From Escherichia coli (lineage in GTDB: Bacteria; Pseudomonadota; Gammaproteobacteria; Enterobacterales; Enterobacteriaceae), in assembly GCF_011045215.1 (NCBI RefSeq), contig NZ_CP049201.1: a stretch of DNA of 64,000 nt; one strand, given 5' to 3'. This document shows, piece by piece, positions 9,525 through 44,484 of the stretch (positions are counted from its first letter, which is position 1; each line of letters opens with the position of its first letter). The notes under the pieces are model-generated. The model was given only the letters and a program-made list of their open reading frames with translations. It was not told where the DNA came from and made no database searches. The position numbers and the translations under genes were made by a program.

Positions 9525-12891
<3,367 letters not shown>

Positions 12892-39376: not shown

Positions 39377-39560
39377 CAGGGTGAGGGATAACCTCACATC
39401 CTGATTATTGACTAAGTGCGCGTTGTTCATGCCGGATGCGGCGTGAACGCCTTATCCAGCCTACAAATCATGCAAATCCAAAATATTGCAGGAGTTATGT
39501 AGGCCTGATAAGCGTAGCGCATCAGGCATTTATGCGTTTAGGGTGAGGGATAACCTCGCC
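39377..39560. repeat. BIME/RIP-like REP cluster between mltA and tcdA
   Basis: REP GCCGGATGCGGCGTGAACGCCTTATCCAGCCTAC and inverted REP GTAGGCCTGATAAGCGTAGCGCATCAGGC, flanked by two copies of GGGTGAGGGATAACCTC. Confidence 0.7.
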
Positions 39561-42086: not shown

Positions 42087-42277
42087 GGTACTCCTCGGCT
42101 TGATGCACCGATCGTGACGCAAAATTCACTTTGATACAAGGAGAGTGCTAACCATCAGAATTATCTGGATATCCTGGCGAAGCCGCGTCAGTAACATATG
42201 CTGAATAGTGTTAGGCGTTAATTTTAGCCTGTTAATCAATACTATTAAGATTTATTAATCGCTTTAAGGAGAAGATG

Positions 42278-42505
42278 ATGAAAAAGACTGCCGCAATTAT
42301 TTCTGCCTGTATGCTGACTTTTGCCCTGAGCGCCTGTTCCGGTTCGAACTATGTGATGCACACCAATGACGGACGTACCATCGTCTCTGACGGCAAACCA
42401 CAGACTGATAACGATACCGGTATGATTTCGTATAAAGACGCTAATGGCAGCAAACAGCAGATCAACCGTACCGACGTGAAAGAGATGGTCGAACTGGATC
42501 AGTAA
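42278..42505 (+). CDS. ygdI: small lipoprotein (DUF903), paralogue of ygdR
   Basis: 75-aa ORF from the second Met, lipobox LSAC; clear similarity to YgdR. Confidence 0.88.
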   Translation: MKKTAAIISACMLTFALSACSGSNYVMHTNDGRTIVSDGKPQTDNDTGMISYKDANGSKQQINRTDVKEMVELDQ

Positions 42506-42524
42506 TTCGCGATCGCAAGGTAAT

Positions 42525-43232
42525 AAATATCCTCCGGCATAGCCGGAGGTTTTTCAAATGCGCCTATAAGGCTCTCTTACCAGCCGCGCCCTAACAGGCG
42601 CACACGATCTGACATTTGCATCCAACTTCGTTACTTACGGCCCGTAAACGGGCTGCCCGGATAGGGAATCGATAACTGCTCTCCCATTTCATCCTCTTCA
42701 AGCTGGTGCTTTATGTAATCCTGTATCTTCGCCGTGTTCTTACCCACCGTATCGACGTAGTACCCTCTGCACCAGAACTCCCTGTTCCTGTATTTGAATT
42801 TCAAATCCCCAAACTGCTCATAAAGCATCAGACTGCTTTTCCCTTTCAGATATCCCATAAAGCCGGATACGCTCATTTTGGGCGGGATCTCCACAAGCAT
42901 ATGGATATGATCTGCACAGCATTCAGCTTCAAGAATCCGTACGCTTTTCCACTCACACAGCTTTCTCAAAATACTGCCTATTGCTCTACGCTTCTCTCTG
43001 TAGAACACTTGTCTTCGGTATTTTGGCGCAAAAACTATGTGATATTTACAGTTCCATCGGGTGTGCGCTAAGCTCTTTTCGTTCCCCATTGGGACCCCCT
43101 TTTGATTTCTTGTTTGACACTTGCAGTTGCCAGACCGCAAGGTGTTTTAACAAATCAAAAGGGGTTTTAATAACTGGCTCAAAGCTGAAAGCTTTCCGGA
43201 ACCCCCAGCCTAGCTGGGGGTTTTCTGTGCAC
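42525..43232 (-). mobile_element. IS200 insertion sequence (IS200/IS605 family); ends approximate to within about 10 bp
   Basis: Encodes a 152-aa IS200-type Y1/HUH transposase; similar GC-rich subterminal hairpins at both ends (CCCCCAGC-CTA-GCTGGGGG at 43202-43220; CCTCCGGC-ATA-GCCGGAGG at 42531-42549); stem-loop sequestering the tnpA RBS; total about 708 bp. Confidence 0.85.
42631..43089 (-). CDS. tnpA: IS200 transposase TnpA (Y1 HUH transposase)
   Basis: MGNEKSLAHTRWNCKYHIVFAPKYRR...HIHMLVEIPP (HuH motif), 152 aa from the internal Met of the track ORF. Confidence 0.9.
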   Translation of the reverse strand: MGNEKSLAHTRWNCKYHIVFAPKYRRQVFYREKRRAIGSILRKLCEWKSVRILEAECCADHIHMLVEIPPKMSVSGFMGYLKGKSSLMLYEQFGDLKFKYRNREFWCRGYYVDTVGKNTAKIQDYIKHQLEEDEMGEQLSIPYPGSPFTGRK

Positions 43233-43438
43233 AAAAAAAAGCACCGCAATTAGGCGGTGCTACATTAATCACTATGGACAGACAGGGTAAATGTACAGGA
43301 AGTGAAAAAAGGTAGCTTTGCTACCATGGTCTGAATCGCAGACCAATTGCAAACACAACAACACAACATCACAACCGTAAGCCAAAAGTTCACCAGAACA
43401 CGCATTCCGATAAAACTTTTCGTTCCGGCTCAGGAAGT
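43233..43438 (-). ncRNA. gcvB: GcvB small RNA
   Basis: Minus strand reads ACTTCCTGAGCCGGAACGAAAAG...GTTGTGATGTTGTGTTGTTGTGTTTGCAATTGG...GCACCGCCTAATTGCGGTGCT plus T8; about 206 nt; divergent from gcvA. Confidence 0.9.
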
Positions 43439-43566: not shown

Positions 43567-44484
43567 ATGTCTAAACGATTACCACCGCTAAATGCCTTAC
43601 GAGTTTTTGATGCCGCAGCACGCCATTTAAGTTTCACTCGCGCAGCAGAAGAGCTTTTTGTGACCCAGGCCGCAGTAAGTCATCAAATCAAGTCTCTTGA
43701 GGATTTTCTGGGGCTAAAACTGTTCCGCCGCCGTAATCGTTCACTCCTGCTGACCGAGGAAGGTCAAAGCTATTTCCTCGATATCAAAGAGATATTTTCG
43801 CAATTAACCGAAGCGACGCGTAAACTCCAGGCCCGTAGCGCCAAGGGGGCGTTGACGGTCAGTTTACTCCCCAGTTTCGCCATTCATTGGTTGGTTCCGC
43901 GACTTTCCAGCTTTAATTCAGCTTATCCGGGAATTGACGTTCGAATCCAGGCGGTTGATCGTCAGGAAGATAAGCTGGCGGATGATGTTGATGTGGCGAT
44001 ATTTTATGGTCGGGGCAACTGGCCGGGGCTACGGGTGGAAAAACTGTACGCCGAATATTTATTGCCGGTGTGTTCGCCGCTACTGCTGACTGGCGAAAAA
44101 CCCTTGAAGACCCCGGAAGATCTGGCTAAACATACGTTATTACATGATGCGTCACGCCGTGACTGGCAGACATATACCCGACAGTTGGGGTTAAATCATA
44201 TCAACGTGCAGCAAGGGCCAATTTTTAGCCATAGCGCCATGGTGCTGCAAGCGGCTATCCACGGGCAGGGAGTGGCGCTGGCAAATAACGTGATGGCGCA
44301 ATCTGAAATTGAAGCCGGACGTCTTGTTTGCCCGTTTAATGATGTTCTGGTCAGTAAAAACGCTTTTTATCTGGTTTGTCATGACAGCCAGGCAGAACTG
44401 GGTAAAATAGCCGCCTTTCGCCAATGGATCCTGGCGAAAGCCGCTGCTGAACAAGAAAAATTCCGCTTTCGTTATGAACAATAA
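43567..44484 (+). CDS. gcvA: glycine cleavage system transcriptional activator (LysR family)
   Basis: 305-aa ORF, N-terminal HTH MSKRLPPLNALRVFDAAARHLSFTRAAEEL. Confidence 0.96.
   Translation: MSKRLPPLNALRVFDAAARHLSFTRAAEELFVTQAAVSHQIKSLEDFLGLKLFRRRNRSLLLTEEGQSYFLDIKEIFSQLTEATRKLQARSAKGALTVSLLPSFAIHWLVPRLSSFNSAYPGIDVRIQAVDRQEDKLADDVDVAIFYGRGNWPGLRVEKLYAEYLLPVCSPLLLTGEKPLKTPEDLAKHTLLHDASRRDWQTYTRQLGLNHINVQQGPIFSHSAMVLQAAIHGQGVALANNVMAQSEIEAGRLVCPFNDVLVSKNAFYLVCHDSQAELGKIAAFRQWILAKAAAEQEKFRFRYEQ

Follow-up and report, generated by a model that had tools for sequence, protein, structure and literature searches.

An intact copy of IS200 (IS200C type) was identified in the window, a 64,000-nucleotide stretch of Escherichia coli DNA. 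The element has very probably transposed precisely to the 3' edge of the T-run belonging to the terminator of the small RNA gene gcvB, with tnpA co-directional with gcvB. The preliminary description had treated this abutment as a peculiarity of the locus; it is instead the usual location of IS200-type elements, since the same kind of junction was observed at most of the left-end flanks that were compared. The element and its surroundings comprised the following features.

IS200 (IS200C type), 711 bp: 42522..43232, minus strand; left end at 43232, right end at 42522.
tnpA, intact Y1 HUH transposase of 152 aa: 42631..43089, minus strand; open reading frame with HIH motif and Y-x3-Q.
Right-end subterminal hairpin: 42531..42549, flagged on both strands by the terminator scan.
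gcvB small RNA gene: 43438..43233, minus strand; Rfam RF00022, 199 bits, model positions 1-204.
GcvB intrinsic terminator: 43233..43261, minus strand; hairpin 43261..43240 and U-tract 43240..43233 (8 U).
gcvA: 43567-44484, plus strand; divergent from gcvB, arranged as in K-12.
ygdI lipoprotein gene: 42275..42505, plus strand; open reading frame, NF033216 at 111.7 bits; convergent with gcvB.

Comparison with the empty site in K-12 showed an exact addition of 711 bp within the 16-bp spacer between ygdI and gcvB, with no target duplication. Read in the orientation of tnpA, the empty site was GCGGTGC-T8-ACCTTGCG; in the window, GCGGTGC-T8 was followed by the element (GTGCACAG...GGAGGATATTTATT) and then by ACCTTGCG, and the flanks rejoined exactly. 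The left end began directly after the tract of eight U in gcvB, while the right end closed with ATATTTATT, a tail of 9 nt beyond the right-end hairpin. Because the element ends in TT, its boundaries can be moved jointly by 0-2 nt into the T-run (left, 43232-43234; right, 42522-42524). A 2-bp AA/TT target duplication was considered and ruled out, the apparent repeat being a product of this ambiguity of register.

In other respects the element was an ordinary, well-insulated IS200, apparently functional and with its canonical parts present, judging from its sequence. The tnpA product matched NCBIfam NF033573 with 147.7 bits (cut-off, 55). The traits of the IS200 group were found throughout: a single Y1 HUH reading frame of approximately 150 aa, subterminal hairpins rather than terminal inverted repeats, a length of 711 bp (approximately 700-711 expected), no target-site duplication and, in the leader, a stem sequestering the Shine-Dalgarno sequence. 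The interior of the element (631-bp query) was 99.8% identical to its closest relative, an annotated IS200C copy at a different locus, after ycdU; five mismatches separated the element from another copy located after sodA. The plus-strand GC skew of the window was +0.044, which places tnpA on the strand with G<C and pointing against the replication fork. This is the minority orientation of IS200 relative to replication (PMC3971601), and the orientation here seems to have been set by the terminator.

The insertion left gcvB intact. All 206 nucleotides, those of the terminator hairpin and the eight U among them, were identical to those of K-12 gcvB (b4443), and the RF00022 family test returned a full-length match with both terminator hairpin and U-tail. 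The terminator scan described the hairpin as having 8 pairs, 6 of them G-C, a loop of 6 and the tail TTTTTTTGTG; sequence comparison showed the same terminator in K-12. The proposal that the A-run at 43233-43240 encodes the GcvB U-tract was thereby borne out, as eight A residues coincided with the end of the RF00022 match. Since the insertion altered neither the promoter and body of the gene nor its hairpin and U8 tail, GcvB is expected, from its sequence, to be of normal length and abundance and to behave as in K-12. GcvB is a global regulator of amino-acid transport and, with the gene intact, the insertion is of little consequence for the window in this respect.

On the other side of the element, the 16 nt that separate ygdI from the 3' end of gcvB in K-12 are found in the window between ygdI and the right end of the IS. 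The terminator scan flagged no terminator-like site on the ygdI strand in the K-12 arrangement; here, the right-end hairpin followed by TTTTT on the plus strand formed a terminator-like structure 26 nt past the ygdI stop codon. We infer that ygdI transcripts would now end at the right-end hairpin rather than entering gcvB. The insertion has probably given ygdI a stronger terminator and 711 bp of additional distance from gcvB. This effect on ygdI is the clearest change predicted from the insertion.

Both junctions were searched for in 5,426 complete E. coli genomes, and no match covered at least 80% of either query; the left junction, as an exact 34-mer, had 0 matches in metagenome contigs. The flanking 11.8 kb was at most 99.4% identical to any complete E. 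coli genome; the strain falls within the E. coli/Shigella group, and the collection contained no close relative of it. IS200 itself was present in 3,075 of the 5,426 genomes, at 10,626 places and with up to 35 copies per genome. The insertion beside gcvB was interpreted as a lineage-specific transposition event, which brought an already described element, with its already described regulation, to a new locus; it is a clean lineage marker, since it was absent from all 5,426 complete E. coli genomes. Such an event is hard to square with an account of IS200 as 'essentially immobile' (10.1101/2024.06.26.600842).

The left end and the tnpA leader conformed to the published anatomy of IS200, as indicated by folding, an Rfam match and compensatory changes. 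Three features were delimited here, and published IS200 coordinates were mapped such that nt n = 43234 - n.

Left-end subterminal hairpin: 43222..43200, minus strand; 10 pairs and a loop of 3, equal to published IS200 nt 12-34.
tnpA leader stem-loop pairing the Shine-Dalgarno sequence: 43164..43096, minus strand; from MFE and centroid folds, published nt 69-138.
tnpA Shine-Dalgarno sequence AGGGGG: 43100..43095, minus strand; read from the sequence, with the AUG at 43089..43087.

Sequence and fold agreed with the preliminary description in placing the left-end palindrome at 43202-43220 (43200-43222 when two A-U pairs are counted), approximately 12 bp from the A-run; precisely 12 bases (43221-43232) lie between the two. 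The palindrome folds on both strands, was invariant in an alignment with 17 relatives and presumably binds TnpA. In published IS200 this hairpin (nt 12-34) is a bidirectional terminator (PMC4513863, PMC5435999). The hairpin in the window is the same as the one studied, and on the plus strand it is followed by UUUUCUGU; taking its function from published IS200, this copy would likewise terminate transcription in both directions. A simple terminator scan did not flag it, two U being absorbed into A-U pairs.

An AGGGGG motif does precede the tnpA start codon as had been described, with a spacing of 5 nt (UCCCA) rather than the 6 nt reported, and four of its five G residues were paired in the fold (43096-43099). 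The long stem, given earlier as 43094-43164, was recovered with coordinates that differed by 1-2 nt (43164..43096). Folding of the leader had been proposed as a check, and a stable stem was predicted: the 163-nt leader reached -61.8 kcal/mol, against -44.5 +/- 4 for shuffled sequences (z = -4.3), and 0 of 200 shuffles did as well. Rfam RF01405, the IS200 leader model, matched 43222..43099 on the minus strand with 146 bits (E = 1e-31). In an alignment of 17 IS200-type leaders, taken from Escherichia, Yersinia, Vibrio, Brenneria, Dickeya, Edwardsiella, Mailhella, a Bacillota MAG and a Saccharibacteria MAG, the stem was retained, and both sides had changed at 8 of its 32 pairs. Fold, RF01405 match and covariation are all in keeping with the view that this stem is the classic translational block of IS200 (Ellis 2015, PMC4513863).

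The leader of published IS200 also gives rise to an antisense RNA, art200, which starts at IS nt 153/154, among the first codons of tnpA, and is approximately 90 nt long (PMC4513863). The corresponding features of this copy were as follows.

Predicted art200 antisense RNA: 43080/81 to approximately 43169, plus strand; published coordinates mapped, 3' end after the stem and UUUU.
Candidate art200 promoter: 43046..43075, plus strand; -35 TTTACA (43046-51), 18-nt spacer, -10 TAAGCT (43070-75).

The candidate promoter fell below the threshold of the promoter scan (9/12 matches), and its conservation is confounded by coding sequence; its arrangement, TTTACA-18-TAAGCT, fits the published description of a 'good -35, almost unrecognisable -10' (PMC4513863). 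The plus-strand fold contained a stem at 43096-43164 followed by UUUU, and art200 is probably made in this copy, ending within the element approximately 64 nt inside the IS. An Rfam match to STnc490 was not accepted as support for the antisense transcript. In the literature, STnc490/art200 is an antisense RNA (PMC2515195, PMC4513863), whereas the model scored 146 bits on the tnpA-sense strand and 18 on the other; the match therefore supports the leader only.

The left-end hairpin was used to scan one genome per species, and this recovered at least 120 loci among the matches listed, from Y. pestis, Vibrio ruber, V. penaeicida, Mailhella, Oxalobacter, a Bacillota MAG, Brenneria, Budvicia, Edwardsiella and others. 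Salmonella IS200 was absent from the matches listed (at least 120 loci). A terminator-like hairpin and T-run, ending at the IS and on the tnpA strand, was found at 95 of 121 distinct left-end flanks (79%) among the matches listed, these flanks representing few genomes (one Y. pestis assembly contributed approximately 45) and loci selected by one conserved hairpin sequence. At random positions in the same loci, a hairpin and T-run occurred in 280 of 20,000 cases (1.4%). Where the last 8 nt before the element included at least 6 T, a hairpin was present in 76 of 90 sites (84%), again among the matches listed. Comparable T-runs elsewhere in the same loci followed a hairpin in only 737 of 7,639 cases (9.6%; OR 51, p = 4e-61), and those in confidently non-coding DNA in 173 of 1,392 (12.4%; OR 38, p = 4e-49). 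The distance from the last G:C pair of the target hairpin to the IS was narrowly distributed, being 6-9 nt in 84 of 99 sites; the tail at the right end of the IS is 9 nt.

Other copies in E. coli behaved similarly. Those after the sodA and sseA terminators emerged from the junction searches, in which their similarity extended past the end of the IS. The copy after sodA, compared with K-12, was an exact 711-bp addition at the end of a T-run. The copy after sseA had the same type of left junction, its right flank differing from K-12 by one T and some substitutions, and the copy after ycdU displayed the same pattern of hairpin and T-run. The possibility that hairpin and T-run travel with the IS was ruled out, as the flanking hairpins all differ in sequence; nor is the flanking hairpin part of the element, as the terminators of gcvB, sodA and sseA are present at the corresponding IS-free sites in K-12. 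Because they differ in sequence and pre-exist at empty sites, the flanking hairpins are host terminators. The element in the window was likewise inserted immediately 3' of a hairpin and T-run in a fixed orientation, the arrangement that defines a terminator-targeting class. An explicit statement in the literature that IS200 or IS1541 inserts after terminators was not found, only a general statistical note in a preprint that terminator-like sequences occur upstream of ISs more often than expected, above all for IS200/IS605 (10.1101/2025.07.22.666184). One IS1541 copy is described between the pheL attenuator and pheA in Yersinia (PMC3082878).

The association could arise through target recognition. 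In IS200/IS605 elements, each subterminal hairpin has a short guide 5' of its foot, with which the cleavage sites pair; the top strand alone is used, and no repeats are generated (PMC3333891). Both hairpins of the element in the window were preceded by GAAAA(A), and its left cleavage site would be a T-run. TnpA, acting on single-stranded DNA, would pick a T-rich cleavage site able to pair with this guide; the AAAA just 5' of each subterminal hairpin would pair with a TTTT target, and a hairpin would aid capture. A single-stranded terminator would then mimic the right end of IS200, itself a hairpin with a 9-nt T-rich tail. Both the AAAA guide and the requirement for a hairpin are inferred by analogy with IS608. 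It is possible on this basis, and is suggested here tentatively, that transposases of the IS200 group actively target intrinsic terminators on single-stranded DNA as mimics of the right end.

Several other explanations were weighed. A repeat-induced misjoin, placing an IS200 copy here during assembly, would account for the junction being confined to one assembly and missing from every other complete E. coli genome and metagenome contig; copies of ISs do frequently break or misjoin assemblies. However, both junctions were base-exact relative to K-12 and the flanks rejoined perfectly, and the site obeyed the target rule of the family in position, strand and absence of duplication, which a random misjoin would not be expected to do; an artefact has only the slightest probability. 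IS200 is described as favouring A+T-rich DNA without a defined target, and the spacer between ygdI and gcvB is short and A/T-rich, so the position could be a coincidence of random AT-seeking insertion. This was judged very improbable: 79% of the 121 flanks shared hairpin and T-run on the same strand against 1.4% of random positions, only 10-12% of T-runs as such had a hairpin in front of them, and the same junction recurred in E. coli at three further copies (after sseA, sodA and ycdU). It is unlikely that the abutment with the gcvB terminator is coincidental. Insertions of IS200 and IS1541 inside genes are known under selection, for example hisD984. That selection alone produced the pattern, with IS200 entering any T-run and harmless copies behind terminators persisting, is a possible if doubtful explanation. 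It is favoured by the recovery of such in-gene insertions when they are selected for (hisD984, the founding IS200 insertion, cited in PMC4513863), by sites just past terminators being among the least harmful, and by the reading of the general pattern, in the preprint cited above, as an effect of niche through which transposase expression is limited (10.1101/2025.07.22.666184). Yet T-runs in non-coding DNA follow a hairpin in 12.4% of cases against 84% at IS200 ends, the distance from hairpin to IS is narrow (6-9 nt), and the strand always places tnpA downstream of the terminator, for which harmlessness alone has no obvious need. Part of the association may be due to harmless insertions having survived, the cause then being mixed; the control in non-coding DNA and the tight spacing speak against survival as the whole explanation.

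A different explanation attaches importance to regulatory crosstalk, in which readthrough from gcvB drives tnpA or a 5' tnpA small RNA, or antisense transcripts strike gcvB. The two genes do lie in the same direction, as the preliminary description had it, with 12 nt between U-tract and left-end hairpin. Given the strong transcription of GcvB in rich medium, readthrough amounting to a few per cent could exceed the weak tnpA promoter. In Salmonella, two stable RNAs that bind Hfq, STnc290 and STnc440, have been mapped to positions just upstream of IS200 copies (PMC2515195). Against this, the GcvB terminator is intact, with a GC-rich stem of 8 bp and a U8 tail, and the published left-end terminator halts approximately 85% of incoming transcripts while the Shine-Dalgarno stem represses translation approximately 20-fold (PMC5435999). 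Rare readthrough from gcvB would be stopped at the left-end terminator and would go untranslated owing to the Shine-Dalgarno stem. The earlier suggestion was correct that any readthrough would run into tnpA in its sense direction; an altered GcvB is not expected, as hairpin and U8 tail are untouched. Its further suggestion, of transcripts that exit the IS and continue antisense into gcvB, was not borne out by the sequence, given two structures of hairpin and U-tract on the plus strand between the art200 start and gcvB. Such transcription is unlikely to reach gcvB because art200 is predicted to end at the stem and UUUU, beyond which lies the left-end hairpin with UUUUCUGU. Crosstalk was on balance considered improbable.

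If active targeting of terminators by IS200-group transposases is correct, the 3' ends of small RNA genes and operons would be natural, near-neutral landing pads for the IS200 group. It would account for a supposedly 'immobile' element having reached 3,075 of 5,426 E. coli genomes harmlessly, and for the stable Hfq-bound RNAs just upstream of Salmonella IS200 copies. Target recognition of this kind would add a structure-dependent target rule to the model of single-strand transposition and explain the quiet persistence of IS200; it would also caution against reading small RNAs beside IS200 as products of the IS.

Among known systems, the element most resembles the IS200 of Salmonella enterica, with which it shares a length of approximately 707-711 bp, a 152-aa Y1 transposase, a left-end hairpin at nt 12-34 (PMC4513863), a Shine-Dalgarno stem at nt 69-138, an AUG at nt 145, a right-end hairpin, and the lack of both inverted repeats and target duplication. 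It differs in being the E. coli IS200C variant, at a locus where the element is absent from 5,426 complete E. coli genomes, and art200 and the 5' tnpA small RNA would be candidate transcripts of this copy. IS1541 of Y. pestis and Y. pseudotuberculosis has a nearly identical left-end hairpin and leader, and its copies also lie directly after sequences of hairpin and T-run. Unlike IS200 in the window, IS1541 is present in tens of copies per genome and forms head-to-tail junctions of right end and left end (at three of the loci compared, L080, L081 and L083), of which the window contained none.

IS608 and ISDra2, the mechanistic paradigm of the IS200/IS605 family, have fixed targets, TTAC being one. 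These elements resemble IS200 in having subterminal hairpins and a Y1 transposase of the HUH type, in transposing strand-specifically as single strands ('peel and paste'), and in inserting 3' of a short guide-recognised sequence without duplication (PMC3333891, PMC2806898). Their targets are fixed tetra- or pentanucleotides, 'a specific pentanucleotide' in the case of ISDra2 (PMC2806898), with no hairpin context reported, whereas the apparent target of IS200 here was a T-run after a hairpin. A likeness in target niche only is provided by an unrelated group, the class C group II introns, which are retroelements with a ribozyme and reverse transcriptase rather than a Y1 transposase. Class C (IIC) introns insert just after the stem-loops of intrinsic terminators, in the orientation of the upstream gene, minimising harm to the host.

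Finally, STnc290 and STnc440 of Salmonella, both Hfq-bound, resemble GcvB in the window in that the left end of an IS200 copy directly follows the 3' end of a stable small RNA (PMC2515195). They were proposed to be creations of the IS terminator (PMC2515195); by contrast, gcvB and its terminator pre-date the insertion, as the empty site in K-12 demonstrates. Because of the target rule found here, STnc290 and STnc440 may, by analogy, be pre-existing, terminator-ended RNAs beside which IS200 landed later, as it did beside GcvB.

The Rfam model RF01405 ('STnc490') matched the IS200 leader with a strong strand bias, scoring 146 bits on the minus, tnpA-sense strand at 43099-43222 against 18 bits on the plus strand, the latter being only a spurious match. 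STnc490/art200 was defined as an RNA antisense to tnpA by the papers that named it (PMC2515195, PMC4513863). The Rfam family itself appears to model the tnpA leader; therefore, a match to RF01405 is no evidence for an antisense RNA. Matches to two further small-RNA models, and the IS200 right end, were located as follows:

39464-39506, plus strand: Rfam ES036 (CssrF) small RNA, 46.5 bits (gathering score 37.6), unrelated to the IS200 and gcvB finding
42522-42554, plus strand: partial, sub-threshold match to Rfam Ysr202 (Yersinia sRNA 202), model positions 250-282
42531-42549, plus strand: IS200 right-end hairpin, followed by TTTTT

The hairpin and its T-run form a terminator-like site for ygdI, 26 nt past the stop codon of that gene, and the element sets the convergent ygdI and gcvB 711 bp apart. 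In the K-12-type stretch from ygdI to gcvB, the terminator scan flagged no terminator-like site on the ygdI strand before gcvB. The Ysr202 match covers the IS200 right end and corresponds to the 3' end of the model, which suggests that this Rfam family takes in an end of IS1541, the IS200-type element of Yersinia.

Ends of IS1541 were also encountered among the loci listed by the left-end hairpin scan (one genome per species; at least 120 loci). At three loci in Yersinia pestis NCTC5923 (L080, L081 and L083), a left end lay directly after the right end of another copy, with the head-to-tail junction reading ...CCGGAGGATATTTATT/GTGCCCAG... (junction at the slash). This arrangement is consistent with the right end, a hairpin with a T-rich tail, having served as target, or else with tandem dimers. 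At another Y. pestis locus (L079:10100-10180) the target hairpin, GGCAGC...GCTGCC, was itself unrelated, while the ATATTTATT that followed it was identical to the IS200/IS1541 right-end tail; this could be chance, or the remnant of another element's end.

Other left ends were solitary or broken. In Dickeya undicola (L073:562-729), a solo IS200 left-end hairpin formed part of a perfect palindrome that extends beyond it (GTCTATAGAAAAC...GTTTTCTATAGAC). The terminator next to follow has the opposite orientation, and tnpA is absent, so that this left end may represent either a remnant or some MITE-like derivative. The leaders of IS200-type left ends in Pluralibacter (L030:4323-4490) and Y. pestis (L108:2441-2608) broke into unrelated sequence at approximately nt 80 and nt 122 respectively; these are truncated or interrupted copies.

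GC skew on the plus strand of the window was positive (+0.044 overall), and so tnpA (42631-43089, minus strand) points against the replication fork, an orientation that only a minority of IS200 copies are reported to have (PMC3971601). With tnpA oriented in this way, the target T-run lies on the template of the leading strand. Among 5,426 complete E. coli genomes, the IS200 interior was present in 3,075, at 10,626 places (1,259 of them plasmid-borne) and up to 35 per genome; such abundance is hard to reconcile with the description of IS200 as 'essentially immobile' (10.1101/2024.06.26.600842).
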